A stretch of 32,000 nt of DNA. It comes from Haloplanus pelagicus. Its GTDB lineage: Archaea; Halobacteriota; Halobacteria; Halobacteriales; Haloferacaceae. The position numbers and the translations under genes were made by a program. The notes beneath the pieces are model-generated. The model worked only from the letters and a program-made list of their open reading frames with translations, was not told the origin of the DNA and searched no databases. How positions within the stretch are numbered: the first letter of the stretch is position 1; each line of letters begins with the position of its first letter. This document shows positions 13,846-29,154 of this stretch, piece by piece. The stretch covers positions 92,229 to 124,228 of the forward strand of contig NZ_CP098519.1 in the NCBI RefSeq assembly GCF_023703795.1, written 5' to 3'.

Positions 13846-13939
13846 ATCTGCTTGGTTGCGTCGAATCGATTATCGCTCTGTTCACCACACCGCACTCGCG
13901 GCACCGTGCTCTTCTGACCGGCCTCTAAGGATAACGTGC

Positions 13940-14716
13940 TCATGTCCCCGGTGCGTCGTTCCATAGGTCCACGTGGAGTCGCGGCGTGTACCGGTAGCCG
14001 TACTCCATCGCCAGCTCGGCGACCTCGCTTCGCGTCCCGTCGAGTTGCTCGCGCGTCATGCCCTCCGGCATCAACAACACGTCATCATCGGCGACAGTCG
14101 TCGCCGTCGCTTTTTGTACTCGGTCAACCAGGTCCGTAATCTCCGGGAGGTCCGTCTCGTCGGTCACGACGAACTTGAGTTGCGTCTCGTACGTATCGAC
14201 CATCTGGGACAACGCATCCATGTCAATTCGATTCTGTTCGTGTTTCTCCTCCCACTCGCCCTCCCCCTTCGGGTCACGATCGGGTGTTGGCGTGCTGCTC
14301 GCCAGCTTCGGGCTGATACTCGCTAAATCGATCGGCGCGTCCCGGTAGATTGTCCCGTTCGTTTCCACCGTCGTGTGATAGCCGTCTGCGGCGAGTCGTT
14401 CGAGGAGTTCGACTGACTCCTCATGGATGAGTGGCTCCCCACCTGTGAGGACGACGTGGCCAGCCTGTTCGTGGGACTGTACTTCTTCCACGATCGAGTC
14501 GATGTCGCGCCACGCCCCGGTCGGCTCCCACGAGGTATGGTACGAATCACAGAACCAACACCGCAGATTACATCCAGAGGTCCGTACGAAGACGGAGGGG
14601 ACGCCTGCGAGCGTTCCCTCGCCCTGTAACGAGTAGAACACCTCGTTGATCGGGAGGCCCTCACCAGTCGCGTCAGCGTCTGTTGCGGGCTCTTCGATAT
14701 CACTAGCAACCGGCAT
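13940..14716 (-). CDS. queE: 7-carboxy-7-deazaguanine synthase (radical SAM)
   Basis: INEVFYSLQGEG, FVRTSGCNLRCWFCDS (Cx3Cx2C) and VVLTGGEPL. Its start overlaps the queD stop (TGATG at 14714-14718). Confidence 0.93.
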   Translation of the reverse strand: MPVASDIEEPATDADATGEGLPINEVFYSLQGEGTLAGVPSVFVRTSGCNLRCWFCDSYHTSWEPTGAWRDIDSIVEEVQSHEQAGHVVLTGGEPLIHEESVELLERLAADGYHTTVETNGTIYRDAPIDLASISPKLASSTPTPDRDPKGEGEWEEKHEQNRIDMDALSQMVDTYETQLKFVVTDETDLPEITDLVDRVQKATATTVADDDVLLMPEGMTREQLDGTRSEVAELAMEYGYRYTPRLHVDLWNDAPGT

Positions 14717-15177
14717 CAGTACGACGCACAGAGCTCCTTGGTCTCGCTCACCGACACCGACACATCCGTCACGGTATCCGGGAACTCATCGAGCATGCGT
14801 TGTTCGAGGAGGAGGCTCATCACCTCCGCCGTCGGCGGGTGTTCCAACACCACGAGCGCGTCGCCGTCACCAGACGCCTCGAACGCATCTACAAGCGGGT
14901 CGCCCTCCTCAACCAGGAACCGGTGATCCCACGCGTCGATGACGTCCGTGACGTCGCCTTTGTCGACGACCCAGCCCTCCTCGGTGAGTTCACCGGTCAC
15001 TTCGACAGTGATCTCGTAGTTGTGGCCGTGTGGCCGCGAACACTTCCCGTCGTGATGTAGGATTCGATGACCCGAACTGATCCGGATTGGATTGTCGCCT
15101 CCGATTTTGAGTGTCCGCTGGCCTGCCTCGACCAAGTTTTCAGCCGTAGAATCATCTTGTGATATGCTTTGAGACAT
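14716..15177 (-). CDS. queD: 6-carboxy-5,6,7,8-tetrahydropterin synthase
   Basis: SSGHRILHHDGKCSRPHGHNYEITVEV carries the His/Cys/HGH catalytic and zinc motif of QueD/PTPS. It is translationally coupled to queE. Confidence 0.92.
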   Translation of the reverse strand: MSQSISQDDSTAENLVEAGQRTLKIGGDNPIRISSGHRILHHDGKCSRPHGHNYEITVEVTGELTEEGWVVDKGDVTDVIDAWDHRFLVEEGDPLVDAFEASGDGDALVVLEHPPTAEVMSLLLEQRMLDEFPDTVTDVSVSVSETKELCASY

Positions 15178-15416
15178 ACTCGAAGATTACCAATCGCAGA
15201 TATAAATATTAGGATCCAGCTTAATTATCGAGTACGGGCCTGTTCACTAGTTTTGGATTATGAACACTTATTCACAAAGTATGGCACCTTTCACACGGAT
15301 TTTCGCCGGATTGGTGAGAGACACTTTTCCGCCAAATGTTGAGGAGCTCTCGACCGATCAAGAAGATGAACAACACCATCCAAGATTACAAATATACACT
15401 ACGATAAGAATAGACA

Positions 15417-15788
15417 ATGAGTAAACGAGAAGATCAACGAGAGAGTAGCTTGTCCTTGAGTGAAATAGACTCCACGCGAGCCCCTGATGAAAAGCAAATG
15501 GACGGCAAATCTGGAGAGATGCTGTATCAGCTCAAATTTCACAAAAGGCAGGGAGCAACCACCGAGGTGGGAAAAGTAACTGAAATCGGATCGTTAGAGG
15601 ATTCGCCTCCCGTTGATCTTCAGGCACTTCAGACAGATACCTATACTCACTATGCTATCTTCCGTTTGAAAGATCGATCAACGACACTGATTGTACAAGA
15701 CGAATCTGGAAATACGCACAAAGCGCTTTCACTTGGCAAAGATACTGTGAAAGTACCTTACAAAGTGAGTATTACCATCCAATCTTAG
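15417..15788 (+). CDS. Hypothetical protein
   Basis: A 123-aa ORF at the left end of the island with no recognisable motif. It is the only sizeable ORF in a 960-bp stretch. Confidence 0.4.
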   Translation: MSKREDQRESSLSLSEIDSTRAPDEKQMDGKSGEMLYQLKFHKRQGATTEVGKVTEIGSLEDSPPVDLQALQTDTYTHYAIFRLKDRSTTLIVQDESGNTHKALSLGKDTVKVPYKVSITIQS

Positions 15789-15946
15789 TAACAGTTCCCA
15801 GCTGATAGACCCCAAAGTGGTCTTGCTACTTCCAGTCTCTGAGAAGTAATGCTCCGTTCGCTGAGCAGGTTGTGGCTCATTGTAGTATCGCAAAATTTTC
15901 GCGTATATTGTTAGCTACACTAGAATAAATGAAATAGTCTCGTGAA

Positions 15947-15970
15947 ATCACAAACATAGATCACAAACAT
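15947..15970. repeat. Direct repeat ATCACAAACAT x2 (13-bp period) upstream of the TGT-like gene
   Basis: ATCACAAACAT occurs at 15947-15957 and again at 15960-15970, about 170-190 bp upstream of the ATG at 16138, in an AT-rich non-coding region. Confidence 0.6.
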
Positions 15971-16137
15971 TCCACTCTATATTCGAACGTAGCATCGGTT
16001 ACTCACCTTCTGTGGATTCAACGGAACAAGAATCGGGATAATAGTAATGTTATCATAATATATCTGTGCTTACACTCACTGTATTGAAGACACAAATGAT
16101 ATGACGAGTGAGGTAGGGTATCTGAGTAAGTAGCTTC

Positions 16138-17205
16138 ATGCGACGATACCAATTCGATGACGTCGGCGAGATAGAATTCGTGGCGTCTGTCGCGCAAATC
16201 AATCGTTCTCAGCTTATCGATATCGTGGAGGACCTCGAGGAATACAACCTTGTAGAGTATGCTCTTGGTCGGATGATGTTTTGTCCGCTTACCTCCTCAG
16301 AGATTGCGGTTGATTATCTTGAATCGCTTTCATCGTCCTACGATCTCACATTCGCTTGTGATTCGGGAGGGTATGAGTCTCAAGTCAACGATGAATATAC
16401 GATGAAAGACATCTATACATTTGATCGAGAATACTACTTGTCGACAGACTGGCCTGACGAATTAGTTCTGCCCGACCAAGTGCCCGTAGAAGGAGACGAC
16501 GAGGCAACGATAGAGCAGAAGGTCCAGGACACAATCTCTCTCTCTCGAATGCTCTATAATGAACTACCAAGCGACAAGCAAGAGCGCGCAGTGCCAGTAA
16601 TCCAGGGGCATACTAAACAACAAATCGTTGAGTGTCTCGATGTTTATAGGAAGTTTGACAAAATAAATAAAATTGGGTTTGGGAGCTTTGGTACCGGAGG
16701 AGTAAATGGGGGTGTGAATTATTTGAATGAGGAGAATCTCGAACTACTACAATTCGTTGTGAAAGAGGCTCGGAAGTATGATCTAGACGTCCATGCATTC
16801 GGAATTGGCGGGCCAACTTCAATTCCTATCCTATATCAGTGTGGTGTTGATACGTTCGATTCGACTGGCTGGATACGATCTGGGGGTTATGGAAATATCT
16901 TTTTCCCATTTAAAAGTCGGCTTAATGTTACGCACCTTCGCAATCGGTCCGGTCCTACAGTCTTCCGAGAGGAATTGAGGGAAATAAAAGAGGAGACCGG
17001 ACATGAATGTCCGTACTGTCGGTCATTCGAATCCCTGCAAAACAGTCGTCAACATCGAATTTTACATAATCTTATTGTCATGCGTGAGATGACAGACATG
17101 ATCCTAGAATATTCGCTCGAAGAACTCATCGAGATGATGAATCCTAACTCAAAGTATACCGGCTACCTAAAGAAATTTACATCAACCGAGTCGGTCCGGA
17201 ACTGA
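16138..17205 (+). CDS. Queuine/archaeosine tRNA-ribosyltransferase (TGT) superfamily protein, short and PUA-less: DpdA-like candidate DNA-guanine transglycosylase
   Basis: CDSGGYES (D75 at 16360-16362) matches the TGT 'DSGGFQ' catalytic Asp. VPVIQG matches 'ivQGg', HAFGIGGP matches 'l.GvG.P', and GVDTFDS matches 'GvDmFDc' (second catalytic Asp). The zinc site GHECPYC...RILHNL is HxCxxC...HNL where canonical TGT has CxCxxC...HNL (17002-17067). At 355 aa it has no PUA or tRNA-binding extension. Confidence 0.82.
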   Translation: MRRYQFDDVGEIEFVASVAQINRSQLIDIVEDLEEYNLVEYALGRMMFCPLTSSEIAVDYLESLSSSYDLTFACDSGGYESQVNDEYTMKDIYTFDREYYLSTDWPDELVLPDQVPVEGDDEATIEQKVQDTISLSRMLYNELPSDKQERAVPVIQGHTKQQIVECLDVYRKFDKINKIGFGSFGTGGVNGGVNYLNEENLELLQFVVKEARKYDLDVHAFGIGGPTSIPILYQCGVDTFDSTGWIRSGGYGNIFFPFKSRLNVTHLRNRSGPTVFREELREIKEETGHECPYCRSFESLQNSRQHRILHNLIVMREMTDMILEYSLEELIEMMNPNSKYTGYLKKFTSTESVRN

Positions 17206-17252
17206 TTATCTAGAGGTAGATATTTGTTTGAGGTGTCTAATTGAATGACGAG

Positions 17253-18101
17253 ATGAGTCATTACACTTCAAAATTCCATATTAGTGACCCTGGCCCACAG
17301 GAGTTGTATGAATATTTGGATACTGTGGAGGCAACATCGCCATCATCGAATCCAGAACTTCTTGAATCGGCCAGAGACCTTGGCCACTCAATCGGGAGCA
17401 AGGAGAAATCTACAGAAGGTTCGGTGCTTGGCCGGCTCGGGATTGTAGATCCCACCGATCAATTTCAGTTTACTGAACTCGGTGACTCCCTGGTCGATAT
17501 CATGTATAGGGATCGGAACCTGTTTAATACGGTACTTCATTTTCTTTATTACTCTGCTTTTGAGAGATACCCAGACAGATATGTATTTATGTCGTATACA
17601 TACAGAGAGATGACCAACTATCTCTATGATAATTCCCCGTTTAGCACTTTTCGGGGAGAGCGTGGAACAATTGTTGGTGAAGTCACCGAATTAGCAGAAC
17701 AGAGTCCAGATGTCGACGTTTCCAAGACACGAAGCGGCGTGTCACTTAGTACAAAGAGTTTCAATAATTATCTGCAGTATCTTGCGGAACTATCCCCCGA
17801 GGTGCTAGTGGAGGATGACTCTGGGAGTCCCGGATTCGAGCGACGTGCGTTCTGCCCTCCGGAACTTATGATCTTGGCCGTGGATCATATCTATAAGCAA
17901 AACGAGACAGATTATGAGACGCTCCTCAGAGTGACAGATGATACCAAAGTTCGAATTCAACAGATGTGCCTCCTCTCTGATGATGGGTTCGATGAGGTAA
18001 CCGAGTACGCTGAACAGGCGTATCCATTCTTCTCAAAGAAACATGACTTTGGTCTCAACCTTCGATTAGACCGAGAAGTAACTCTTGATGACCTCCAATA
18101 G
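17253..18101 (+). CDS. Hypothetical protein (second gene of the island operon)
   Basis: The ORF-track start is TTG at 17241. The first ATG is at 17253 (MSHYTSKF...). No catalytic motif recognised. Its stop is followed within 1 nt by the next gene's ATG. Confidence 0.6.
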   Translation: MSHYTSKFHISDPGPQELYEYLDTVEATSPSSNPELLESARDLGHSIGSKEKSTEGSVLGRLGIVDPTDQFQFTELGDSLVDIMYRDRNLFNTVLHFLYYSAFERYPDRYVFMSYTYREMTNYLYDNSPFSTFRGERGTIVGEVTELAEQSPDVDVSKTRSGVSLSTKSFNNYLQYLAELSPEVLVEDDSGSPGFERRAFCPPELMILAVDHIYKQNETDYETLLRVTDDTKVRIQQMCLLSDDGFDEVTEYAEQAYPFFSKKHDFGLNLRLDREVTLDDLQ

Positions 18102-18102
18102 C

Positions 18103-18504
18103 ATGTCGTCACCTGTTGCAGAACTACTACAGAAATCTAATGAGGCAAAGCGGCGACTACAAGATGACCTCCTGACCGACGATCAGATCGCAGTACGCTC
18201 GAAACTTTTGGAATTTGCTGATCAGGACGGCGGTCATTACAACTTGTATGGAGCAAGAGGTGTTGGCAAGACCACGCTGGCTAAATATATGATGGTTCAT
18301 CAGAACGGGTGGGGATACGCTCCATGGCTACCCGTGAAAAATGCCTCAACACGAGTCCTCTTCGTCGATAATGTACCGGCAACCAGGACAGCGTCACGCA
18401 GAGCGCGTGAAATTATTGGATTTGACACTCCAGACACGGTGATTTCAGTTTCGCGCAAACCGGTTCCGGAAACAAAAGCGCGTGTTACACTCTCTGACAA
18501 CTGA
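18103..18504 (+). CDS. Small P-loop NTPase-like protein
   Basis: Walker A YGARGVGKTTLAKYM and a possible Walker B RVLFVDNV. The ORF-track start at 18085 overlaps the upstream gene by 17 nt. The in-frame ATG at 18103 lies 1 nt after the upstream TAG. Confidence 0.6.
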   Translation: MSSPVAELLQKSNEAKRRLQDDLLTDDQIAVRSKLLEFADQDGGHYNLYGARGVGKTTLAKYMMVHQNGWGYAPWLPVKNASTRVLFVDNVPATRTASRRAREIIGFDTPDTVISVSRKPVPETKARVTLSDN

Positions 18505-18591
18505 TACTTACAGGAGATATTCCCCTTCTCTACTCTCTGTCGATCATCCAATAATTTATTAACAGAGAAGTGCCAGAAGGGTATAGTTACT

Positions 18592-21500
18592 ATGGGACAG
18601 GCGAATGCGCAAAATATCGAGTCCTCTCTTCGAGAACTCAATGACACGCTGAACAAAGATGAGGGGATTGTCAATACATCAAGCGCTCACCGATTTTTAG
18701 ACCAGCCGAGCGATATCGAGACCGAATACATTGAGTACGCTCGGACTCACCTGATCCAGCCAGACATTCAACGGTTTATCGATTCGTTGACTGGAGCCCT
18801 CGAAGATGAAGATCTGAATAAATCTGTTCCTGGATACATTGTGGGCCCCTACGGGTTTGGGAAGACCAGTACAACGGGAAAAGTTTGGTACCTTCTTGAC
18901 CAGGAAGACAACTACATTACTACCCCTCCGATCTATTTCGATGAACTACAGTCAATTGTCGACGCCGTGTACGGATGGATGCGGTTCCGCTTGAGGGACC
19001 GAGAAGAGCATCTAGAAACCCTCGAACAGCGGTACCAGGCCAAAGTGACCAGTAACGTCGAAGATATTGTTGACCAAACTGGATTCGATGACAAAGATCA
19101 AACCCGGGAAGAGTTCGAGCGACTAATCGAGTCGGGATCGATTGATATCGAATTCTCGGTCCAACACGTTCTGGATTTCCTTTCTGAATGTAATCAGATC
19201 GCAAAAGACGCTGGGTACAAAGGCCTCGTCGTTATTGCCGACGAACTTCAGCAGTTCATATCCAGTCACTCGTCTGACAAAGAAGCATACTCTAAGCTAC
19301 GTGATATTGCAAAAAGCACAGCCCTCGGCCTGAACGAAGGCGACGGCTTGGGTCTTCTGTTCACCATGGACGATGGTCTCCACGGAGACCTGGACGTGAA
19401 TGCAGACGATGTTCTTGCGCGGTTAGCAGAACAGAACGTTCAACTCAACTTAGCGAATGTTTACAACCGAGATTTCCCGACTAAGCTGTGGGAAAGTCTG
19501 GCTGAAACTTACGGTTTCAAGGACAGACGCTACGAAGTAATTACCGAGGATACGCTAGACGCAATTGGTCAGATCTGTGAACGTGGACCTCCTCTTTCAA
19601 ACGGCCCTCGTTCAGTTGTGGACATTCTCACGATCGCTATCGAGCACTACCTCTCTGAGTCGGAGGCGTTTGATGCTCTTGACCTCGCCAATGCGTACTA
19701 TAATGGCGTTGTCCGATTCAAAGGAGACCACATCAAAACCGCAATCACAGAGGCGATTAATTCTGATCAAATAAGTACCCCCGATCGTGAGAATTTCATC
19801 AAGCTGTGTGGGGTATTCCCTCGAGGAGTCTCAGATGACCTACTGAAGCAGTATGGGGTTCACGAGGCGAAAGAACAGGTCAAAGGAGAACTTCACGGAC
19901 AGCTCATCATCACACACGAGGAAGGGCGCACGCTCAAACGTCTTGAGCGGGAAGGAGAGGATCGTGGGATCAAAGACGAACTGTTCACACAGTTCTATCG
20001 GGATTATGACACCACAGACATCTACGATTCGAACGCTTCTGAGACGTTCCGAGAATTTGTTGTTTCGGAAGAACTCTTCCCCGCTGTTCGAGGAAAGAGT
20101 CTGAGCAGCTGGGTTACCGAACACGCCTTTGAACCCGAAACTGGAGGAGTGTACGCGGCAGTCTTTCGTGGGTCATTCAACGGGCAAGAGTACCCTGAGC
20201 GGCTTATTGAAATCCGAATGGGCACGGATGCTACATCAGTTAAATCGCCCGATGAAGGCACAGATACTGACCTCACGATTGGCTTTGCCGTTAACATGGA
20301 GAAGCAGACTGAAGTCACCCCTCACATCGAACGGGTATCTACTGACGAGGTTCTTCTACATCTAGACTTAGCTGATTCTTTCGACAGCCTCCCGAGCAAT
20401 ATCGTTATGTTGGAAGATTACATGAGTCCGGAAGATGTCAGCCCCCATCTGCTGCTCTCCTTACATCACTTCATGCGTAATTGGGAGGAGAACCAAACAG
20501 TCAATCCCAACCAGGAGACACAGTTGGAATATATCCGTGACCAGTTAGTCACGCAAAGCATTCAGAAGGCGTTTGGCCCTCCCCTGAATGGGGACGACTT
20601 CCTCGATGAATCAGGGAGTAGTCGCCGGACCGTTGATCCGTCAAAGGTCGTCGAGAAAATCTTCAACCGTGTAATCGAAGAGGTCTATCCTGATTATAAA
20701 ACTCTCTTCATCTCGGACAATTACCAGACCTTCTTAGATGACTATGAATCTCTCCTAGTAGGAAACGATCCGAATATCCGGATCTCACAAAAGCGGGGTA
20801 ATACCCCAATTGAAGGGACAAAAAGCGATATTTCCAACGCGATCGGGGTATCTAGTAACTCGACAGCAAAAACACGTCTTGATAAACAATTTGAAGATCT
20901 CGTTGACACTGAAGTCTGGCAGGGCAAGGATGCCAGGGTTCGATTGACCCTTCATCCCCTTGAGGAACTTCTTAAAGACCATATCGAGGAGCAAGAGAAG
21001 GAAACTGTCGCCGTCAGTGAGTTATATGATGTAGCCGGGGAGAAAGGGTACCGGCAGGAAGAAGTTGACTGGGCAGTCCGCCTCCTTGTTGGTCGAGATT
21101 TCATCAAGCATGATCAAAACGATGAAACGGTCGAACTGAGCGACATTGCTATCGACATCGACCAAGTCAAATCTCGGCTGGAATCACTCCGAAACACGGC
21201 TGCGGAGCTCAACGAAATCTCGAACGAGTGGAGTGAGTATGACTCGATCACTAATGAGTTGAATCGCCTTGAGGAGGAACTCAGCGGAACGACGAATGAC
21301 GACATTGAGATACTCGATGATCTTAACGCCGAGCTAGAAGAGGTAGATTCGCAGATCTCGACGCAGATCAAGGCCACAAGTGCGACCCTTCGTGAACGTG
21401 CCCGAGGAACAATAGACAGACTCAAAGGACTTTCATCCAGCAACAAGCCTCGCGATCTGAAAAAGACTGTCGAGAAGTCTAATGTTCCGTTCGGCCTCCA

Positions 21501-22683
21501 TATCAAAGACATCGAGACTGAACTATCATCCAACTTTACAAAAGCAACTACAGAGGCCGACTCTGCCCGCTCAGATCTTGATACAGATCTCGAGATTGCA
21601 TCTGGCACGGCAGCTCTGAGTGAGATTAATACTCTACAGGACTCAATTGAGGAGGCGAAAGAAATCGCTGAGCAGGTTGATGAAGAATTAGAGGATATCA
21701 AAGAGGACGCGGCTGACTACGCGGATTGGTGTCGACTTGCAAATGACATGGACGCTGCTCGTTCGGATATTGTTCAGTATGCAAATACTCATCCTGACAA
21801 CAGTGCCGCGATGTCAATCAGGGATGAGCTTACCGCTCTGATGAGTGAGATTCAGACTGAGTTCCAGAAGGGCAGTGACCACGATGACTTCCCTCAGGCA
21901 CTGCGGAATGCCGAAATGTATCGGCAGCAGTTCGAAGACCTCAAAGACCAATTCGAGGAGATAACTCAGGGGGACGAAGAGAACTTCAATTACCGGAAGA
22001 ATGTGCTTGAGAACACGCTGAAGATTGGTACTTCCGGCCACCCAAGTATCAGACAAAACTTGAGTCCTAACAATGCTGAGAAGTCACGTAATGACCTCAA
22101 GCATGAGTTCCGCCGCCAGCTGGTTGAGAACAGCGATGGAATCGAAGATGTAAAGTCCGATATCAAATCGATTGAGACCAGCATTGAGTATGCTGAGTTG
22201 TTGAATCAGGTTCCGGATGAAGCTGACCCGACTCCGGCTGATATCCGCGATCAGATAGTCGATTTCGAATCTACTATTGAAGATATCCATCAGGCTGTCA
22301 GTCAAATGGATATCACTTCGGCTATCCGACTTCCGACTGAGGGTGGCCGTTCGAACTCGTTCCCCAACACCGATGAGAAATTGAGTCTCTCGATTGACAA
22401 CCGCGAGGTGAACGTCGGCGAACGAATCGACGAAATCCGAGATTCAATTGAGGCACTCCATCAAGACGTTCGTGAGTGGCGACAGGTTACTGAGACTCCC
22501 CCAGAAGATCTTGAATATATTATGGATGAACTGGACTATCGGGATCAGTCTGACTTGGAGAGCGTCCTAATTTCAGTCTCTGAAAAGAAAGGTGACACCG
22601 ACGTTGCAGAGTTCTTTGCCGATCTGGAAACCTTATTCGAGGGGAACCACATCACGGTCTCGATCAAAAGCGAACATAGGTAA
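18592..22683 (+). CDS. Large P-loop ATPase, BrxC/PglY-like (DUF499-type), with a long coiled-coil C-terminal half
   Basis: Walker A VGPYGFGKTS (18841-18867) and Walker B LVVIADELQQF (DE at 19240-19245). The size (1363 aa), N-terminal ATPase position and gene order immediately before a PglZ gene match BREX BrxC/PglY. Residues from about 845 to 1290 (about 21127-22460) are E/D/L/I-rich and heptad-like (…LRNTAAELNEISNEWSEYDSITNELNRLEEELS…). The family assignment is inference. The P-loop call is read directly from the sequence. Confidence 0.8.
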   Translation: MGQANAQNIESSLRELNDTLNKDEGIVNTSSAHRFLDQPSDIETEYIEYARTHLIQPDIQRFIDSLTGALEDEDLNKSVPGYIVGPYGFGKTSTTGKVWYLLDQEDNYITTPPIYFDELQSIVDAVYGWMRFRLRDREEHLETLEQRYQAKVTSNVEDIVDQTGFDDKDQTREEFERLIESGSIDIEFSVQHVLDFLSECNQIAKDAGYKGLVVIADELQQFISSHSSDKEAYSKLRDIAKSTALGLNEGDGLGLLFTMDDGLHGDLDVNADDVLARLAEQNVQLNLANVYNRDFPTKLWESLAETYGFKDRRYEVITEDTLDAIGQICERGPPLSNGPRSVVDILTIAIEHYLSESEAFDALDLANAYYNGVVRFKGDHIKTAITEAINSDQISTPDRENFIKLCGVFPRGVSDDLLKQYGVHEAKEQVKGELHGQLIITHEEGRTLKRLEREGEDRGIKDELFTQFYRDYDTTDIYDSNASETFREFVVSEELFPAVRGKSLSSWVTEHAFEPETGGVYAAVFRGSFNGQEYPERLIEIRMGTDATSVKSPDEGTDTDLTIGFAVNMEKQTEVTPHIERVSTDEVLLHLDLADSFDSLPSNIVMLEDYMSPEDVSPHLLLSLHHFMRNWEENQTVNPNQETQLEYIRDQLVTQSIQKAFGPPLNGDDFLDESGSSRRTVDPSKVVEKIFNRVIEEVYPDYKTLFISDNYQTFLDDYESLLVGNDPNIRISQKRGNTPIEGTKSDISNAIGVSSNSTAKTRLDKQFEDLVDTEVWQGKDARVRLTLHPLEELLKDHIEEQEKETVAVSELYDVAGEKGYRQEEVDWAVRLLVGRDFIKHDQNDETVELSDIAIDIDQVKSRLESLRNTAAELNEISNEWSEYDSITNELNRLEEELSGTTNDDIEILDDLNAELEEVDSQISTQIKATSATLRERARGTIDRLKGLSSSNKPRDLKKTVEKSNVPFGLHIKDIETELSSNFTKATTEADSARSDLDTDLEIASGTAALSEINTLQDSIEEAKEIAEQVDEELEDIKEDAADYADWCRLANDMDAARSDIVQYANTHPDNSAAMSIRDELTALMSEIQTEFQKGSDHDDFPQALRNAEMYRQQFEDLKDQFEEITQGDEENFNYRKNVLENTLKIGTSGHPSIRQNLSPNNAEKSRNDLKHEFRRQLVENSDGIEDVKSDIKSIETSIEYAELLNQVPDEADPTPADIRDQIVDFESTIEDIHQAVSQMDITSAIRLPTEGGRSNSFPNTDEKLSLSIDNREVNVGERIDEIRDSIEALHQDVREWRQVTETPPEDLEYIMDELDYRDQSDLESVLISVSEKKGDTDVAEFFADLETLFEGNHITVSIKSEHR

Positions 22684-22688
22684 CTCCC

Positions 22689-23864
22689 GTGTCTACCCGC
22701 ACTATTGAGTCACTGTCTGCCTTGGCTGAAGCGACACGTGACGGACCAGTTGTCGCAAATATCGGAGGGCTCGAGTCTCGAGTACTACAAAACAGGCATG
22801 GTATCGATACCCTTGAATCGCTTGAAGAGTTTTACCGCCTCTATGAGTCTCCGACTAATTTGTTTGAAACCGATGTGATCATTCGGGATCAGGGATCTAA
22901 GCCGTCCTTTGATAGGTCACTTACGCTCTACAACCCACCTTCGATAGAACAGGTCGAATACACTGGCACCGTGTACGATAGGTCGCTTAATGGACTCATA
23001 TCAGAAGGGTCGATTTCTTGGGACGATGTGGAGAGCACAACCACTTGTCAATCAGAGGTCGGCGATCTCATCACGGAGGCGGCATCTGATGTTGATGTTA
23101 TTGCGCTGGTTATTGTTGATGGCCTCTCCTATCAGGATTGGACAGACTCAGGCTATGAGGCAGAGCCAATCTATGTTGATTGCCCAACACGTACAGATTG
23201 TGGCTACCCAAATGTCGTCCGTGGGGCATCCAACGGGAAGCATCTCCAATATCGGCTTTTCAACGAGGGATATAAAACCCGGAAGGCGTTCACCTACTGG
23301 GAACGTAAGGATAACGACCTTTCTGACGAATTGCACGATGGTTTCTCCAAGAACGACGTAATCGGAAACATCCAGGACTTTGCTGATTCCATCTCATATT
23401 TACAGACCCACGATTGGTATCGACCGAAGACCTATCTCCAGTTCACTCTTACCGGTCCTGAACGTGTAGCGCACCGAATGAAGGAGGATCCTGTGATCCA
23501 GAGTGAGGTAGACGCAGTTCATCAAAAGTTGTCTGACCTCCGTGAAACAATCAGCAAAGAAACGGACTCATTCCGTATTTTCGCTGTTGCCGACCATGGT
23601 ATTCTCTGGCGGATGGATACTGACTTTGAGGCACTTGATGAAAAGTGGAAGCAGGGAATTCGTCGGGACTATGAAGACCCTCCAGCCAGCGCATCTGTTC
23701 CTGAGTCCGTTGGTGAAACATCCTTCTGGGCTGGTCAGCAATATCTCCGGCTTTATCACCCACACATATTCAATAACCTACGAAGTAACGAACCAGGAGT
23801 ACACGGTGGCTTTTCGTACCAAGAGTCCATTGTTCCGTTAATTGAATACGAGGATCTGAAATGA
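22689..23864 (+). CDS. pglZ: PglZ-domain (alkaline-phosphatase superfamily) protein, short form
   Basis: GTG start 5 nt after the upstream stop. VIALVIVDGLSYQDW (D144 at about 23118), FAVADHGILW (DH at about 23592) and the C-terminal GVHGGFSYQESIVPLI (about 23802) match the three metal-ligand and terminal motifs I associate with PglZ ('iDg(l/m)r', 'sDHG', 'HGG.s..E..vP'). At 391 aa it is shorter than typical BREX PglZ. Confidence 0.68.
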   Translation: MSTRTIESLSALAEATRDGPVVANIGGLESRVLQNRHGIDTLESLEEFYRLYESPTNLFETDVIIRDQGSKPSFDRSLTLYNPPSIEQVEYTGTVYDRSLNGLISEGSISWDDVESTTTCQSEVGDLITEAASDVDVIALVIVDGLSYQDWTDSGYEAEPIYVDCPTRTDCGYPNVVRGASNGKHLQYRLFNEGYKTRKAFTYWERKDNDLSDELHDGFSKNDVIGNIQDFADSISYLQTHDWYRPKTYLQFTLTGPERVAHRMKEDPVIQSEVDAVHQKLSDLRETISKETDSFRIFAVADHGILWRMDTDFEALDEKWKQGIRRDYEDPPASASVPESVGETSFWAGQQYLRLYHPHIFNNLRSNEPGVHGGFSYQESIVPLIEYEDLK

Positions 23865-25030
23865 CACAAGAAATATTCATTGGCGAGGAACGTGATAGCG
23901 GCGAGGAAACGCTTATTGACACTTCGAAGGCCCGTGCTCTCTTCGTTTGTGGGAAGCGAGGGACCGGCAAGAGCTATTCGTTGGGAAACGTCATCGAGGA
24001 GGTCAACCGAGAGATGCCCGACACAGTTCCCCTTGTTGTTGACCCGATGGGGATTTACTGGACGATGGCCGAACCAAATGACGAACAGCAAGATCTCCTC
24101 TGGGATTGGGGAATGCAGCCGACTGGGTTTGACACTACACTCCTCGTTCCGGGCGATCCAACAGAACGTTACGGACCTGAAGTCTACGATGAGATGATGC
24201 GCCGCGGTATCGAAATCGAGAGCCTGCGTCTCAATCCTTCTGACATTTCTCCCGATGGGTGGTGTGAACTCTTCGATCTCAATATAAACAAACCGATGGG
24301 TATTGCGTTGTACCGAGCTGTCCGTTCGCTAAACGAATCTCAAGACTTCTTTGACCTGGACGAGCTCATCGAAGAAGTTGAATACGACGAAAAAGCAAAC
24401 GAGCGGACTGTGGACGCTCTTGTCAATCGTCTGGAGATGGCACACGAATGGGGCATCTTTAGTGACTCATATACAGACATCTGGAACAATCTCGATCCTT
24501 CTCGGGTTAATATTCTCGACGTGAGTGTTCTCGACCCAGGGAAGTACGGTCTTCGTAATTTGGTCGTCTACGTACTGACAAAAAAAATATTTGATGAGCG
24601 ATCGAAAGCGCGCCGTCGAGAGGAACTACAGTTGTCCTCTGATATTCCGAAGGTCTGGCTATTCATCGATGAAGCACACAATTTTGCACCGTCCGGGTCG
24701 TCCTCGCTTGCGAAGGATATCTTGATTCGATGGATCAAGGAGGGACGTCAGCCGGGGCTGTCGCTCGGCATAGCAACTCAACAGCCAAGTGCTGTATCCT
24801 CAGATGTCGTGTCCCAAATGGACTTGATTTTCTGTCACAAAATCACTACTCGCACTGATATTCAGTCGCTGAACGAACTAAGTCAGGAGTACATGGGGAG
24901 TCAGCTGAAGACCTATATCAAGAAAATCGATAAAGTTGGTGAAGCAGTCTGCGTCGATGACGAAAGAGAAGTAGTAACGCAGGTTCAAATGCGACCACGT
25001 ATGAGTCAGCATGGTGGCAGCGGGGCATGA
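23861..25030 (+). CDS. HerA/FtsK-type (DUF87-like) ATPase
   Basis: Walker A FVCGKRGTGKSYS (23951-23974), Walker B VWLFIDEAHNFAP (DE at 24668-24673) and GIATQQPSAV, which fits the 'TQRP' motif of HerA/FtsK/VirB4 ATPases. ATGA overlap with the pglZ-like stop at 23861-23864. Confidence 0.82.
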   Translation: MTQEIFIGEERDSGEETLIDTSKARALFVCGKRGTGKSYSLGNVIEEVNREMPDTVPLVVDPMGIYWTMAEPNDEQQDLLWDWGMQPTGFDTTLLVPGDPTERYGPEVYDEMMRRGIEIESLRLNPSDISPDGWCELFDLNINKPMGIALYRAVRSLNESQDFFDLDELIEEVEYDEKANERTVDALVNRLEMAHEWGIFSDSYTDIWNNLDPSRVNILDVSVLDPGKYGLRNLVVYVLTKKIFDERSKARRREELQLSSDIPKVWLFIDEAHNFAPSGSSSLAKDILIRWIKEGRQPGLSLGIATQQPSAVSSDVVSQMDLIFCHKITTRTDIQSLNELSQEYMGSQLKTYIKKIDKVGEAVCVDDEREVVTQVQMRPRMSQHGGSGA

Positions 25031-25563
25031 CAACAAATATTCAACGATCAAACAATTCTACGGCAGTGCCAACTACAGTCGACCTCCAGATCTCTGACTT
25101 CCTTGTCAAATCAATTAGTAAAAGTGAGAGATCGGTATCAGAATTGAATTCTTTTTTTAATTCTAATCAGATCAAATCTGAACTCCATTGGTTCACTCAT
25201 CGGGACACCCTGGAACGTGCAGCGTCACGGCCTGACCGACGGTTGTTTTATTTTGCACCCCACGATGCGATCATCGGCGGACTCATGATTTGGTGTGAAT
25301 CGAGAGTGCTTGACCAAACGGAAGCACAAATACGCCTTGTTGCTGTTTCACCAGATTATCGAGGCTATGGAATCGGACAGTACTTAGTGAAAAAGGCTAT
25401 TGAATTTGCAAAAGAGCATAATAAGGAATCAATAATCGCGGACGTTGCAGCCGAAGCTCCCGCAGTACAATTCTGGGAGGCTATCGGGTTTCACAAAGTT
25501 GATTCGTACTTTACAAATGGTGGTCGAGAAATGTATCAGATGGAACGGCACCTGAGTAAGTGA
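25027..25563 (+). CDS. GNAT-family N-acyltransferase
   Basis: IRLVAVSPDYRGYGIGQYLVKKAIEFAKE is the acetyl-CoA-binding motif A (R-G-x-G-x-G/A). The downstream FWEAIGF matches motif B. ATGA overlap with the HerA-like stop at 25027-25030. Confidence 0.8.
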   Translation: MTTNIQRSNNSTAVPTTVDLQISDFLVKSISKSERSVSELNSFFNSNQIKSELHWFTHRDTLERAASRPDRRLFYFAPHDAIIGGLMIWCESRVLDQTEAQIRLVAVSPDYRGYGIGQYLVKKAIEFAKEHNKESIIADVAAEAPAVQFWEAIGFHKVDSYFTNGGREMYQMERHLSK

Positions 25564-25597
25564 GAGCGTTTATTAGAGGGGACCCATAGATTGTACT

Positions 25598-25996
25598 ATG
25601 TCACAGTCCTCTTCCAGTTCTGAACGAAGTTCCTTACTGGACTCTTTTGAAGCCCCGGAGACGTCAGTCGCTCAGGTGTATACGTTTGAAACAGACGAGG
25701 TAACAGCACTCTGTCCGTTCGACTTCGGAGGGCCTGATTACTATGAGTTCACTCTAAAATACGTTCCTTCCGAAGACTGTGTCGAGAGCAAGAGCCTGAA
25801 AAAGTTCCTTGAATCGTATCGTGATGTTGAGATCACTGCCGAAGGACTTGGTGCCGAGATGTATGAAGAAATCACCGAGACAATATCTCCTAAAAAAATG
25901 TACATCCGGCTCGAACAGGCACGGCGAGGTGGGATTGAAGAAACTGTTGAGTTCGGTGATATAGAATTGAAGTCCGCAAGAGAGCAGGTACAATAA
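25598..25996 (+). CDS. queF: QueF-family protein (preQ0 nitrile reductase or QueF-like amidinotransferase; the subtype cannot be decided by eye)
   Basis: TALCPF carries the catalytic Cys (C39, about 25712). GGPDYY carries the preQ0-binding Asp. VESKSLKKFLESYR fits the QueF motif E(S/L)K(S/A)hK(L/Y)(Y/F/W) at 25784-25810. The unimodular size is 132 aa. Confidence 0.83.
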   Translation: MSQSSSSSERSSLLDSFEAPETSVAQVYTFETDEVTALCPFDFGGPDYYEFTLKYVPSEDCVESKSLKKFLESYRDVEITAEGLGAEMYEEITETISPKKMYIRLEQARRGGIEETVEFGDIELKSAREQVQ

Positions 25997-26568
25997 AATA
26001 AATAAAAGGAAATCATCCCTATATTCGAAGGACTAGTCAACCAAACCGCCTCCGCCCAGACGACCAAGCGCAACTCTTCGAGGTCTAAGTCCTCTTCTGA
26101 TTCATCAATAAGTTCGAAGGCCCACAAGACCACAGTTTGTCTTCCAAGCAATATAGAGGGGTTGGCAGAAAGTCGCACGGATGGACGGGAAAACTACGTC
26201 GCTGAGGATCGTCCTGACAGTCACCGTCAGCGTGTTTTTGAGTCTCAGAGTATTCGAGGTAAAACATCCGAATCACGTAGACCACTTCGCTCATAGACAA
26301 GTCTTGAGGGGGTGATCTCTTGAGCTTAAGCATTGCGAGAATCTAGCCCTTTTCGAATTATTCGCAAACCTCCGCTATTTATGTACACCTCGAGTGGGCC
26401 AGAACTCGGTCGTATTGGCCCAATCTACGATTCTCAAAGGGCCCAGATTATTAGCAATCACTACTAGTTCGAGGAGCAATCTCGATATGAGAATCCGAGG
26501 GCATCGCAGATACGCAGAGTGAATAGTATCTAACAAAGATTTAACCGATACCGCGGACTCCACGTGAT

Positions 26569-29154
26569 GTGCCATTTCCCCGCGCTAAATCATCCCGTCA
26601 ACTCTACGACGAAGTCAAATCGTATGACCGAGTGATTACCCCAGACGGACCGCTCGCGAGTGCCCTCAACCGCCAGCTTGATCGGTCACACCTCGGTCCG
26701 TTTGCTATACCCCCACGTCGCCTTGCGGTCGGTCGCCGGCAAGAATCTGAGGACCGCCTCGCGTTTCTCGGCATGATCGCAAATGAAGATATTTCGTGGA
26801 AACGGTGCGCCTACGCAGTCGGGAATATCCTCCAGTGTTGGGAACACCAAGGATCCCACGAGGCTATCTTCGAGTACGACGCATACATCGACGAGGCTAC
26901 CGAACGAGCTGTTGAGCGAATCGGTGACCTTGAGACGGCCTCGATGAAGCTCACAACCGACACTATCGATTCAGATCTCGATGTGGTCGTTGTCGAGCCG
27001 GAGATGCTTACAAAACTCGAACGAGCGTATCTGCCTACTGAGTACGATACGGTCAGTCTCTTTGCCGACACAGAGTTTGAGCTGCCCCCGTTTCGGATCC
27101 ATGATTCACCGACAGCGATCATCGAAACGGTGGTGAATGCGGTCACCGAAACAAACGCCGAAAACGTCGGGATCGTCCTCGATCAGGAAAGTGAGTACTC
27201 GCCGCTTATTGAGTCCGCACTCGAGGCAGCCGACATCCCGTTTTTCGGCGGACCGGGCTTTACTGATCGCAGCGAACACCGCTTGTTTCTTCATTTCCTC
27301 CGGACTGCCCACCGTGGAACTGACACTCGGATCAGCGAGATTCGGTCGCTGCTGACAGCTTTTGACTGTGATGTGGCCGACCGTGAGGCAGACAAGCGGC
27401 TCCACGAACTCGATGATGAACAATTGTCGTGGCTGATCGACTTCTGTCACGAGATCCAGGAGTACACGTTTTCGGACGCGCTCTCGGTGTTCGAACACCG
27501 CACCGACGACGTGCTTGATGCCTTTCGAACGGAGCTTGATGAGCTTGGTATCGCCGACGAGACTGTCACGGAAGCGCGCCTCGACGAACTGTCGTTCTAT
27601 CTACAGACGTATGAGGTCCCTGTTGACCGGGATAACGAAGGCGTCCTGCTCGCCGACGCAAAGTCAGCATCATACGTCGGTCGTGAGGTTGTCTTCTATC
27701 TTGGCCTCGATGACCGGTGGACGCATTCGGCACCGCGTCGTCCGTGGGTTGATCAGGATGCTCAGTTCACGCGGAATCTCAAGAGCTTCCAGTTGCTGTT
27801 ACAGAGTGGGAGTCAACAACACTATCTCGTTCAGGATGCGACCGGCGGATCACCCGTCACCCCATGTCTGTACTTCGAAGAGCTCCTCGAGCAAGAGTAT
27901 GATCGCTTCTCAGAGCTGCCGTCTACCACCCATCAACTCCGATCTGAATCACACGATGGGGCTGTATTCAACACAGAGGCAGTTGACGTGTCTTCTGAAC
28001 CAGTAGAGACGATTAGTAAGTCGAGTCTCAACACCTACGTGAACTCACCCCGAGACTACTACTTCAGCCGGATCGTCGACGGCCCAGAGAAAGACTATCT
28101 CACTGAGGGTACCCTACTCCATGACTTTGCGGAGTTCTACGTTACCCATCCAGCGGTCGTCGACGACGCGGCGCTGACAGACGTCGTTGATCTCATGCTT
28201 GATGAAGTCCGTCCCCTGATCCGCTCTGTTGATGAACAGACTCGCCGGACGGAGTACCGTCTAAGCCTCGAAACAATCGTCTCGTACCTTGATGACAACC
28301 CTCCGACAGACGGAGCGTTCCTTACGCCCTCCAGCAGTACTGAGAACGCTATTGCCGACTACTTCGGGTATGATATCGAGTCGTCGGTAACTGAACGCCG
28401 GTTTGTTGATGAGGATCGTGGTATCAACGGAATGATCGACCTTGTCCAGTCGCAAACCGAGCTGCTGGATTACAAAAGCGGGAGCGAGAACGACGCCAAT
28501 TCGATCGTCCAAGACGCCGCGATCGACGAACTCTCCAACGAACCTGACTTTCAGGCGTTGCTATATCTCACTTACTGGAGCTCACAAACGCCCGCTCAAC
28601 AGCTTTCGTTCACGTTCTTCTACGTTACTGAACTCGTCGACGACGCCATCGCCGGTGACGTCGATATCGACGACGTGCTGACGACGGTGACGTATTACCC
28701 CGGATCTCTCACAGATCACGTCCGAACAGAGGAGTTCTTCGAGTACCTTTGTGAGGAGGGGGCTAACGACTGCCAGAAGACCCTCTCGAAGATCGATTAT
28801 CAGACGTACGCTGCTCTCTTCGATGCCGCACCACTCGTCGAGACAACTGACAGCGACGAACTCATCGAGTCAGAGTTTGGCCGGACGATGATCGAACGAC
28901 TTGAGGCGGAGATTAGTGACTTCGTCTATGTAACGACGGGAAGCAAACAGGTCATGCGGGAAATCGCCCGGAAACAGAAGGGTGCGTTTTTTGAACCTGA
29001 CCTAGATGCGTTTGAGTCGTTTGTTGAAGAGCGGCTAACAGAGCTCAACCGACGTCGCACCGGCGACGAACCGTTTCCCATCGAGGGACTTGCCGGCGAG
29101 CCGAATTACCGGCGGGTAGACAATCGGGATTTGCTCTTGGAGGGTGAACAATGA
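26569..29154 (+). CDS. AddB-like subunit: helicase-like N-terminal region without a P-loop, plus a C-terminal RecB-family PD-(D/E)XK nuclease
   Basis: GTG start. Nuclease motifs are INGMIDLVQSQTELLDYKSG (28423-28482; D...D/ExK) and FQALLYLTYW (QxxxY, about 28549-28578). No GKT/GKS was seen anywhere in the 861 aa. Its stop overlaps the next gene's ATG (ATGA at 29151-29154). Confidence 0.72.
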   Translation: MPFPRAKSSRQLYDEVKSYDRVITPDGPLASALNRQLDRSHLGPFAIPPRRLAVGRRQESEDRLAFLGMIANEDISWKRCAYAVGNILQCWEHQGSHEAIFEYDAYIDEATERAVERIGDLETASMKLTTDTIDSDLDVVVVEPEMLTKLERAYLPTEYDTVSLFADTEFELPPFRIHDSPTAIIETVVNAVTETNAENVGIVLDQESEYSPLIESALEAADIPFFGGPGFTDRSEHRLFLHFLRTAHRGTDTRISEIRSLLTAFDCDVADREADKRLHELDDEQLSWLIDFCHEIQEYTFSDALSVFEHRTDDVLDAFRTELDELGIADETVTEARLDELSFYLQTYEVPVDRDNEGVLLADAKSASYVGREVVFYLGLDDRWTHSAPRRPWVDQDAQFTRNLKSFQLLLQSGSQQHYLVQDATGGSPVTPCLYFEELLEQEYDRFSELPSTTHQLRSESHDGAVFNTEAVDVSSEPVETISKSSLNTYVNSPRDYYFSRIVDGPEKDYLTEGTLLHDFAEFYVTHPAVVDDAALTDVVDLMLDEVRPLIRSVDEQTRRTEYRLSLETIVSYLDDNPPTDGAFLTPSSSTENAIADYFGYDIESSVTERRFVDEDRGINGMIDLVQSQTELLDYKSGSENDANSIVQDAAIDELSNEPDFQALLYLTYWSSQTPAQQLSFTFFYVTELVDDAIAGDVDIDDVLTTVTYYPGSLTDHVRTEEFFEYLCEEGANDCQKTLSKIDYQTYAALFDAAPLVETTDSDELIESEFGRTMIERLEAEISDFVYVTTGSKQVMREIARKQKGAFFEPDLDAFESFVEERLTELNRRRTGDEPFPIEGLAGEPNYRRVDNRDLLLEGEQ

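Follow-up and report, generated by a model that had tools for sequence, protein, structure and literature searches.

Within the window, the 32,000-nucleotide stretch of Haloplanus pelagicus DNA analysed here (contig NZ_CP098519.1, positions 92,229 to 124,228), eight plus-strand genes at 16138-25996 form an operon that unites a stand-alone transglycosylase of the TGT superfamily, a GNAT acetyltransferase and a QueF-family protein with a BREX-like core of P-loop ATPases and a PglZ-type phosphodiesterase. The locus is very probably a haloarchaeal member of the BREX-Related Capture (BRC) systems, which were described by computation only (Rakesh & Krishnan, Nucleic Acids Res 2026, PMC12839542; bioRxiv, October 2025). 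It is read here, with a probability of roughly 0.6, as a methyltransferase-free, BREX-like system for telling self from non-self, in which a preQ1-derived deazapurine marks DNA and unmarked DNA is restricted. The narrower proposal that the mark is specifically acetylated, being N-acetyl-preQ1, is tentative.

The kind of system is already published. New here are the QueF-bearing haloarchaeal subtype, its linkage to queC, queD and queE (queCDE) and the link of its GNAT to haloviruses, and together these change the predicted mark. The self-marks known from BREX-class systems are methylated adenines or, in type 4, phosphorothioates. A BREX-class member that marks DNA with a 7-deazaguanine would, if true, join the BREX field to that of Dpd and phage deazapurines. 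The BRC paper (PMC12839542) assumed preQ0 and left the GNAT unexplained, and to this the haloarchaeal loci add QueF and the GNAT link. The QueF of the operon, the TGT-linked GNAT and the sharing with haloviruses lead to a testable chemical hypothesis, a preQ1-derived and possibly N-acetylated mark, which predicts a specific mass in the DNA of hosts that carry the locus and in the DNA of the halovirus HVTV-1.

The eight open reading frames (ORFs), from 5' to 3', are as follows:

16138-17205, plus strand: stand-alone TGT-superfamily transglycosylase of the BRC type, 355 aa (Pfam PF01702, 1.4e-10)
17241-18101, plus strand: 286-aa protein in the position of the BRC 'DUF4007/BrxA-like' DNA-binding component (start probably at 17253, giving 282 aa)
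18085-18504, plus strand: small P-loop NTPase, 139-aa ORF (134-139 aa), corresponding to the BRC 'STAND NTPase/BrxB-like' component (AAA_25, 4.6e-6)
18592-22683, plus strand: BrxC-like P-loop ATPase with a long C-terminal coiled-coil region, 1363 aa (PF10923 BrxC_BrxD, 27.3 bits, cutoff 22.2)
22689-23864, plus strand: short PglZ-type phosphodiesterase of the alkaline-phosphatase superfamily, 391 aa (PADLOC PglZ, 3.9e-6)
23861-25030, plus strand: HerA/FtsK-type ATPase, 389 aa (DUF87, 4e-12; PADLOC HerA, 1e-19)
25027-25563, plus strand: GNAT acetyltransferase, 178 aa (Acetyltransf_1, 2e-14)
25598-25996, plus strand: unimodular QueF-family protein, 132 aa (PF14489, 6e-17, 62 bits, cutoff 27.3)

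A preliminary description of this DNA had placed eight plus-strand genes in a low-GC island at exactly these coordinates; all of the ORFs were found there, and the GC profile agrees. Along the operon, the first two genes are 35 nt apart and the next pair overlaps by 17 nt; gaps of 87 and 5 nt follow, then two successive 4-nt overlaps and a last gap of 34 nt. The earlier domain calls for the TGT, P-loop, PglZ, HerA/FtsK, GNAT and QueF proteins are each reproduced by profile searches. Walker motifs are present in all three ATPases, and the enzymes of the operon look active, judged by their intact catalytic residues.

BRC membership and the conserved gene string

Published BRC systems comprise PglZ, a BrxC-like DUF6079 ATPase, a STAND NTPase that is a homologue of BrxB, a DUF4007 protein that is a homologue of BrxA, HerA/FtsK, GNAT and TGT, and they have been reported in 45 taxa, including three archaeal classes (PMC12839542). 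A full-text literature search found this one paper on the combination and no other using the term. The window locus is assigned to this family by the match of seven components to the published architecture, together with homology of its PglZ and GNAT and the fit of its small NTPase to the published alignment; the likeness includes direct homology to haloarchaeal members listed in the BRC paper. The window PglZ aligns with those of the Halohasta litchfieldiae and Haloplanus salilacus BRC loci at E-values of about 1e-37 to 1e-38, the GNAT has clear homology to the haloarchaeal BRC GNAT sequences given in the supplement of PMC12839542, and the small NTPase, judged by eye, fits the published BRC STAND consensus (NLxG..GKT...D....R, haloarchaeal sequences included). 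Homologues of the TGT include a protein (P0086) from Halogeometricum sp. S1BR25-6, a strain listed in the BRC paper. Consequently, the preliminary remark that a described system with this combination was not known is out of date, since seven of the eight components have been published as BRC, homologous haloarchaeal members included. The eighth gene marks the difference: the haloarchaeal loci carry QueF, whereas the BRC paper includes neither QueF nor queCDE (QueF has no mention in its text and supplements as searched).

The published picture was seeded on PglZ, and in it HerA is universal, TGT and GNAT occur in a subset, and some loci lack both (PMC12839542). The picture drawn here is seeded on the TGT. 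A scan with one genome per species gave 68 loci, which were annotated with hidden Markov models (HMMs) built in this analysis, the GNAT model being a domain-level one; partners were counted in the 50 non-redundant loci with enough flank, the window included. Seen from the TGT, it is GNAT, the 286-aa family and the BrxC-like ATPase that are near-invariant. GNAT is a partner in 47 of the 50 loci, where it lies upstream, lies downstream or at the operon end, or is fused to the TGT. The 286-aa family is found in 48, in each of which a member comes after the TGT in the same position, and the BrxC-like ATPase is likewise present in 48/50. PglZ is present in 34 and absent from 16. The full set of six partners (GNAT, the 286-aa family, STAND, BrxC, PglZ and HerA) occurs in 29/50 loci, while 13/50 have only GNAT, the 286-aa family and the BrxC-like ATPase, sometimes duplicated, and are without PglZ, STAND and HerA; three further loci lack PglZ in other combinations. 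The constant partners of the TGT are thus GNAT, the 286-aa protein and the BrxC-like ATPase, and PglZ, HerA and STAND are frequent but dispensable.

Dozens of loci have the same string of genes; they belong to several phyla of bacteria and two classes of archaea and span Chloroflexota, Poribacteria, Armatimonadota, Bacillota, Acidobacteriota, Methanococcales and Halobacteria. This bears out the earlier view of a BrxC/PglZ core, a stand-alone TGT and QueF as a conserved methyltransferase-free operon. Within the loci examined, QueF is confined to the haloarchaeal ones, being present in 7/7 of them.

Some loci of the scan have arrangements of their own. Minimal variants in some Chloroflexota are ordered either GNAT-TGT-286aa-BrxC-286aa-BrxC (L016, L017, L021, L023, L025, L041) or TGT-286aa-BrxC-GNAT (L018, L051, L052, L053, L060). 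They have no PglZ, HerA or small NTPase, and where BrxC is duplicated one copy is shorter, at about 1170 aa. These may be modification-only or otherwise distinct subtypes. In an Anaerolineales metagenome-assembled genome (L072, 9947-19002) the operon appears as many short ORF fragments of TGT, BrxC, PglZ and HerA, the result either of decay (pseudogenisation) or of bad assembly.

The core proteins differ in how closely they match known families. The 1363-aa protein, which the preliminary description had called DUF499-like, belongs at the level of the BrxC family: 11 of 22 family members match PF10923, and none of the 22 matches the DUF499 model PF04465 (E <= 0.01), which rules out that identity. 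There was no match to the Pfam DUF6079 model at E <= 0.01. Its invariant residues include G88, G90, K91 and T92 of Walker A and D217 and E218 of Walker B. The C-terminal half gives coiled-coil-type matches only, and a profile of the family, searched against the PDB, found nothing but coiled-coil look-alikes (such as apolipoproteins and designed bundles).

PglZ, the presumed effector of the system, has a confident AlphaFold2 model (pLDDT 91.3, built on 35 homologues). Compared with the PDB by Foldseek, this model matches PorX, which has a PglZ domain (4e-10), NPP enzymes (about 1e-8) and the Acinetobacter BREX PglZ 9zn5_B (7.8e-7). The metal and nucleophile residues D144, T169, D302-H303 and H372 are invariant. 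A precomputed PF08665 match is on record for many homologues, including the PglZ proteins of the Halohasta litchfieldiae and Haloplanus salilacus BRC loci, and the closest relatives, 98% identical, come from metagenome assemblies. The HerA/FtsK-type protein, presumably a DNA translocase, has further PADLOC matches to mad8 (1e-18) and to the C-terminal region of DndH (3e-7); its matches to NCBIfam HerA models reach 8.7e-18, all under the equivalog cutoffs.

The two smallest members of the core are the least clearly placed. The small NTPase has the Walker A motif GARGVGKTT and a Walker B-like LFVDN, and its AAA_25 score of 26.8 bits lies just below the 27-bit Pfam cutoff; with the HMM built here, the family was found in 47 loci. 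Close homologues of the 286-aa protein begin at its M5, corresponding to 17253. It has no Pfam or PDB profile match and none to BrxA, and none of 26 family members matches Pfam DUF4007 in single-sequence HMM scans. Its AlphaFold2 model is poor (pLDDT 52), because only close homologues (at least 57% identity) were at hand; it is confident only in a winged-helix-like C-terminal part, and the Foldseek matches are not significant. The DUF4007 and DUF6079 Pfam assignments of the BRC paper were thus not reproduced in single-sequence scans. Profile scans of the operon proteins found no methyltransferase, PAPS reductase, Dnd, BrxL, restriction endonuclease or other nuclease, or helicase domain. The preliminary description had listed methyltransferase, PAPS reductase, BrxA, BrxB, BrxL, restriction endonuclease and helicase as absent. 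This stands for all but BrxA and BrxB: the 286- and 139-aa proteins are homologues of these according to PMC12839542, an assignment that the present searches neither confirm nor exclude.

With canonical BREX of type 1 (BrxA, BrxB, BrxC, PglX, PglZ, BrxL) and type 4 (phosphorothioate), the locus has in common the core of a BrxC-family ATPase and PglZ and the same presumed logic, an epigenetic self-mark with exclusion of unmarked DNA. It differs in being without PglX, BrxL and PAPS-reductase or Dnd genes, in the size of its PglZ (391 aa, versus 879 aa in the Acinetobacter chain), in adding a HerA/FtsK ATPase, and in its mark, predicted to be a 7-deazaguanine base. Without PglX, BrxL or a phosphorothioation module, it falls outside BREX. 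The bacterial Dpd systems (DpdA, DpdB and DpdC with DpdD-K; dPreQ0 and dADG) resemble it in predicted chemistry, the insertion of a preQ0-pathway base by a TGT-superfamily enzyme, in a self-mark of restriction-modification type and in preQ0 synthesis genes adjoining the locus. No DpdB (ParB-like), DpdC (DUF328) or DpdD-K domains were found in the operon and its immediate flanks, and since it also has no DpdA orthologue, the locus falls outside Dpd. In place of the Dpd genes it has QueF and GNAT, which points to a preQ1-derived base and not to dADG.

The dPreQ1 pathway of the Druskaviridae (in HVTV-1: FolE, QueD, QueE, QueC, QueF and DpdA4; PMC6884629, PMC10516641) shares QueF, the preQ0 genes and a GNAT homologue with the locus. 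It differs in its transglycosylase, DpdA4 (DUF6610), and in its viral anti-restriction context without BrxC, PglZ and HerA. Resemblance to Dnd-PbeABCD is in concept only, both being haloarchaeal, modification-dependent and antiviral without DNA degradation. As published (Xiong et al. 2019, PMC6459918), Dnd-PbeABCD uses a phosphorothioate mark, and its proteins include PbeA with helicase motifs, an SMC-like PbeC, a 66-aa PbeB and a 152-aa PbeD. The paper never mentions DUF499, DUF4007 or PglZ, so the earlier picture of a Pbe module with DUF499 and PglZ proteins is not borne out. A Pbe-like module is ruled out by this differing protein set and by the lack of Dnd and PAPS-reductase domains in the operon.

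Transglycosylase, QueF, GNAT and the predicted mark

By analogy with DpdA, the TGT is predicted to exchange guanine for a 7-deazaguanine in DNA. In a 16-member family alignment, D75 (in DSGG), D241, H289-x-C291-x-x-C294 and H310-N-L are invariant, and no PUA or other C-terminal domain follows the zinc site, in agreement with the earlier description of a PUA-less enzyme with both catalytic Asp residues and a zinc site. Models of DpdA, ArcTGT and general TGTs score about equally weakly (22-26 bits), far below curated cutoffs: the DpdA models give 23.5 bits (NF041059, cutoff 200) and 22 bits (PADLOC), and the ArcTGT equivalog TIGR00432 gives 23.3 bits (cutoff 350). This last score and the lack of C1, C2 and PUA domains rule out an ArcTGT. 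Searches of the PDB by sequence and by profile found only weak matches to bacterial TGT and ArcTGT, and no DpdA structure. By sequence, the enzyme stands in a clade of its own within the superfamily and is not an ArcTGT or, strictly speaking, a DpdA. The label 'DpdA-like' therefore suits the function proposed for it and not its sequence, which lies equally far from ArcTGT and bacterial TGT. A large protein collection holds 109 homologues, some of them with N-terminal GNAT fusions, and the closest relatives, 94% identical, come from metagenome assemblies.

The absence of a PUA domain and the ArcTGT score far under its cutoff count for DNA over tRNA as the substrate. A DNA target is also supported by a Thermocrinis virus, in which a homologous pair of GNAT and BRC-type TGT lies in the replication module, amid clamp, helicase, nuclease and PolA genes. 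In this virus, from Great Boiling Spring (L073, 3195-5130), a SAVED-domain protein (8e-15) is followed by the GNAT and then the TGT, and the trio adjoins genes for a sliding clamp, a helicase, a PD-(D/E)XK nuclease and PolA. The annotated TGT ORF (257 aa) ends before the zinc site and the tblastn match runs further, a possible frameshift.

QueF bears on which base is used. Archaeal tRNA modification uses preQ0 directly, while bacteria make preQ1 through a housekeeping QueF (PMC6884629); a preQ1-using archaeal system must therefore bring its own QueF. Each of the seven distinct haloarchaeal loci has QueF as an operon gene, in one of two gene orders. The gene comes last in the window, L001 and L075, and first in Halorubrum sp. 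SY-15, Halorientalis regularis, Halohasta litchfieldiae and Halapricum desulfuricans, where it mostly overlaps the TGT start. A six-frame HMM search to E = 1 found no QueF within 10 kb at about 60 bacterial and 3 Methanococcales loci. A QueF found solely in haloarchaeal operons is most simply explained by a need of the system for preQ1, a base that its hosts would not make by other means, and the presence of the gene in the operon suggests that the mark is derived from preQ1.

The protein itself is predicted from its sequence to be an NADPH-dependent reductase of preQ0 to preQ1. Its best PDB match is the Bacillus subtilis QueF (9e-8, versus 1.5e-4 for QueF-L). It keeps C39, D47, E82 and the NADPH motif as ESKSLKKF, in which position 7 is K instead of the L/Y of the published definition, E(S/L)K(S/A)hK(L/Y)(Y/F/W) (PMC10516641). 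Among the aligned QueF sequences the catalytic Cys, the Asp, the Glu and ExKSLK do not vary. The NADPH motif and the closer likeness to B. subtilis QueF rule out a QueF-L amidinotransferase, which would lead to dG+. Supply of the precursor is likely to be the role of the queC, queE and queD genes next to the island. Such genes adjoin 4/7 haloarchaeal loci; L001 and L002 have them on the same strand, the window and L075 in divergent orientation.

The GNAT links the locus to haloviruses. It retains the R-G-x-G-x-G acetyl-CoA motif and is 37-38% identical, over its full length, to HVTV-1 gp90 and to its homologues in HVTV-2, HCTV-1, HCTV-5 and HCTV-16 (tblastn about 1e-27 to 1e-28; pairwise E 9e-39). 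In a neighbour-joining tree these Druskaviridae GNATs are sister to those of the haloarchaeal BRC loci, and both stand well apart from bacterial and methanococcal GNATs. In 5/5 viruses the GNAT gene sits at the 3' end of the gene for family-B DNA polymerase or adjacent to it, with an HNH endonuclease gene intervening in HCTV-16, and in 5/5 it is less than about 12 kb from QueF, QueC, QueD, QueE, FolE and DpdA4. Coordinates include 10992-11489 in L079 (HVTV-1 gp90), 2121-2618 in L074, 12007-12510 in L080 and 11992-12489 in L081; existing annotations read hypothetical or acetyltransferase. The viral DpdA4 (DUF6610) has no detectable kinship with the BRC TGT (hhalign probability 0.1%), and GNAT and QueF thus travel with two different transglycosylases.

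Eight 7-deazaguanine derivatives are known from DNA, among them N-methyl- and N-formyl-dPreQ1; an acetyl form is not one of them (PMC10516641). The N-formyl and N-methyl derivatives in phage DNA give acylation of the preQ1 amine a precedent. The words 'acetyl' and 'GNAT' have no mention in either PMC6884629 or PMC10516641. It is possible, if rather doubtful, that the self-mark of haloarchaeal BRC systems is 7-(acetylamino)methyl-7-deazaguanine, made by QueF, TGT and GNAT from the host's preQ0, and that the Druskaviridae share this chemistry. Were N-acetyl-preQ1 indeed the mark, it would be a base never reported in DNA, the Druskaviridae would be the copy or the source of its chemistry, and an arms race over one base would be implied. 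The shared GNAT also offers a candidate explanation for gp90 of HVTV-1, an uncharacterised gene beside the viral DNA polymerase.

The mechanism proposed is the following. By the established pathway, the adjacent queD, queE and queC, with FolE encoded elsewhere, would provide preQ0, which the operon's QueF would reduce to preQ1 with NADPH. At particular sites in double-stranded DNA, the stand-alone TGT would swap guanine for the 7-deazaguanine base, by analogy with DpdA. The GNAT, with acetyl-CoA, would acylate the 7-aminomethyl group before or after insertion, giving 7-(acetylamino)methyl-7-deazaguanine. The BrxC-like ATPase, the small NTPase and the 286-aa protein of DNA-binding type may form a surveillance complex that reads the mark, HerA/FtsK would translocate DNA without it, and the PglZ phosphodiesterase would act as effector, nicking unmarked DNA or blocking its replication. 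The restriction half of this scheme is drawn from BREX and from the BRC proposal.

Weighing the competing explanations

A 7-deazaguanine self-mark, as already suggested in the preliminary description, is the most economical reading of the locus, and the BRC paper proposes the same (PMC12839542). Several observations weigh against the reading preferred here. The BRC family as a whole is known from computation alone, with no experiment on any member, and its BrxA-like (286-aa) and BrxB-like (139-aa) assignments were not reproduced here. The TGT is in no characterised DpdA family, which makes DNA as its substrate a matter of inference. QueF scores 81.9 bits against its curated model TIGR03139, just under the cutoff of 86.9, and the QueF proteins of the window, L001 and L075 have Ala before the conserved Glu, where B. 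subtilis has His96 (the site reads FHE in B. subtilis, YHE in the other haloarchaeal clade, SHE in HCTV-5 and TAE in these three). The queCDE genes of the window are host-like in GC and lie outside the island; with addA-like genes near three of the four loci that queD, queE and queC adjoin (window, L075, L002), the adjacency may partly reflect a shared insertion site. HVTV-1 has a homologue of the GNAT, yet its DNA is rich in free-amine dPreQ1, which replaces about 30% of G (PMC6884629); either the GNAT is inefficient on DNA-bound preQ1, or an acetylated fraction was missed. Finally, three Methanococcales loci have GNAT without QueF within 10 kb. Methanococcales are not known to make preQ1. 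N-acetyl-preQ1 can thus not be assumed as the general product of GNAT and TGT, and the rule that GNAT occurs only where preQ1 is available is broken by these loci.

The last two of these observations lend themselves to another account, in which the locus is the same BRC-type defence and its mark is plain dPreQ1, or dPreQ0 reduced in place, the GNAT acetylating a protein of the complex as a switch, or modifying another nucleobase or a small molecule. The authors of the BRC paper lean in a similar direction, seeing GNAT and TGT as possibly separate modification activities and the base as 'perhaps restricted to dPreQ0 alone' (PMC12839542). However, GNAT and TGT are fused in many lineages and occur together in nearly all loci counted, as is typical of steps in one pathway, and in haloviruses the GNAT accompanies QueF beside an unrelated transglycosylase. 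Moreover, if plain dPreQ1 were the mark, viruses of the HVTV-1 type would already look like self. This account is therefore judged unlikely.

It is distinctly improbable that TGT, GNAT and QueF write no self-mark at all, acting instead on tRNA or the free base pool (reprogramming translation, for instance, or depleting or poisoning a precursor in the course of infection), or with the TGT attacking guanines of invader DNA, while BrxC, PglZ and HerA work independently of any mark. In favour of it, all biochemically characterised TGTs outside the DpdA families act on tRNA, and the window TGT belongs to none of the DpdA families; some BRC loci also lack both TGT and GNAT (PMC12839542). Against this stand a TGT with no PUA or other tRNA-binding extension, its strict operonic association with DNA-handling proteins in more than 45 loci, the homologue inside a viral DNA-replication module, and the 13/50 loci that reduce to GNAT, TGT, the 286-aa protein and BrxC, which have the look of a modification-only module. 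Least probable of all, and very much so, is a role outside defence, as a module with which a mobile element hypermodifies and handles its own DNA so as to be maintained, partitioned or transferred, with HerA/FtsK and the coiled-coil ATPase as motors of segregation or transfer. The low GC of the island would fit such a module, as would the integrases at the Halapricum locus and the genes of integrated elements beside the Halorubrum and L003 loci, but the pairing of PglZ and a BrxC-type ATPase is characteristic of BREX-class defence, the PADLOC matches are to defence HerA and DndH models, and the conserved string contains no replication, conjugation or partition genes.

A further feature is common to the three Methanococcales loci. 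Directly upstream of the GNAT-TGT pair, on the same strand and overlapping, each of them carries a gene resembling the D component of 2-hydroxyglutaryl-CoA dehydratase together with a BcrAD/BadFG-type activator ATPase (L028, 7702-9455; L036, 7851-9466; L045, 7739-9367). These could be native neighbours or an alternative reductive module.

The island and its surroundings

The operon lies in an island of low GC, between genes of host-like composition. The features around it are as follows:

3037-4074, minus strand: Mrr-type restriction endonuclease (Mrr_cat, 1e-22), about 12 kb upstream, in a low-GC patch of its own (GC 0.40)
11827-12807, plus strand: ADP-ribosylglycohydrolase, upstream of queCDE
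13156-13845, minus strand: queC, preQ0 synthase (PF06508, 3.8e-72), adjoining the island
13940-14716, minus strand: queE, radical-SAM 7-carboxy-7-deazaguanine synthase (Radical_SAM and Fer4_12 matches), homologous to queE beside related loci
14716-15177, minus strand: queD, 6-carboxy-tetrahydropterin synthase (PTPS, 4.6e-21), divergent from the island, with homologues beside related loci
about 15180-26500: low-GC island bearing the operon (GC 0.41-0.52, versus 0.54-0.62 in both flanks; composition profile)
15417-15788, plus strand: small acidic ORF of 123 aa, inside the island and upstream of the operon
26569-29154, plus strand: AddB-like protein with PD-(D/E)XK and UvrD_C domains, downstream flank, host-like GC
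29151-32000, plus strand: AddA-like UvrD helicase with PD-(D/E)XK nuclease, downstream flank, host-like GC

The edges of the island are sharp, one directly after the queD start and the other a little ahead of the addB-like start; a search for tRNA genes and for att-like or flanking repeats at them found none. The island appears to be a horizontally acquired carrier of the system. The queCDE genes, with a GC of 0.59, are host-like, which rules them out as members of the island in the window. The 123-aa ORF matches nothing in Pfam, and neither a methyltransferase nor a PAPS-reductase domain was found in it. Both Halorubrum sp. SY-15 (L002, 8893-9258, minus strand, 3e-56) and Halohasta litchfieldiae (L077, 2612-2965, minus strand, 1.5e-45) encode a homologue directly ahead of the operon. 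The ORF may code for a regulator, an accessory protein or a ninth component that has gone unrecognised.

An AddB/AddA-like pair also flanks the L075 locus (13395-18807, minus strand), and an AddA-like gene is found near the Halorubrum locus as well (L002, 1-1031, plus strand); the flank of L001 differs, with Mre11-Rad50-NurA-HerA in place of the addAB-like genes. The addAB-like flank could be shared chromosomal synteny, with an insertion site between the addAB-like genes and queDEC, or it could reflect a link to DNA-end processing. The ADP-ribosylglycohydrolase neighbours the block of queCDE, island and addAB-like genes both in the window and in L075 (18855-19757, minus strand), on opposite sides, which points to local rearrangement around the island. 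An Orc1/Cdc6 gene lies further upstream of the island; together with TFIIE-alpha and the named relatives it points to the Halobacteria. The Mrr gene in its own low-GC patch suggests that the region as a whole gathers defence genes. Elsewhere, integrase or recombinase genes flank the Halapricum locus (L078, 6214-7221 and 20529-20996) and the bacterial locus L003 (5702-7288), and a gene resembling a primase-polymerase adjoins the Halorubrum locus (L002, 2167-4911), all of which is consistent with a system that moves on integrative elements.

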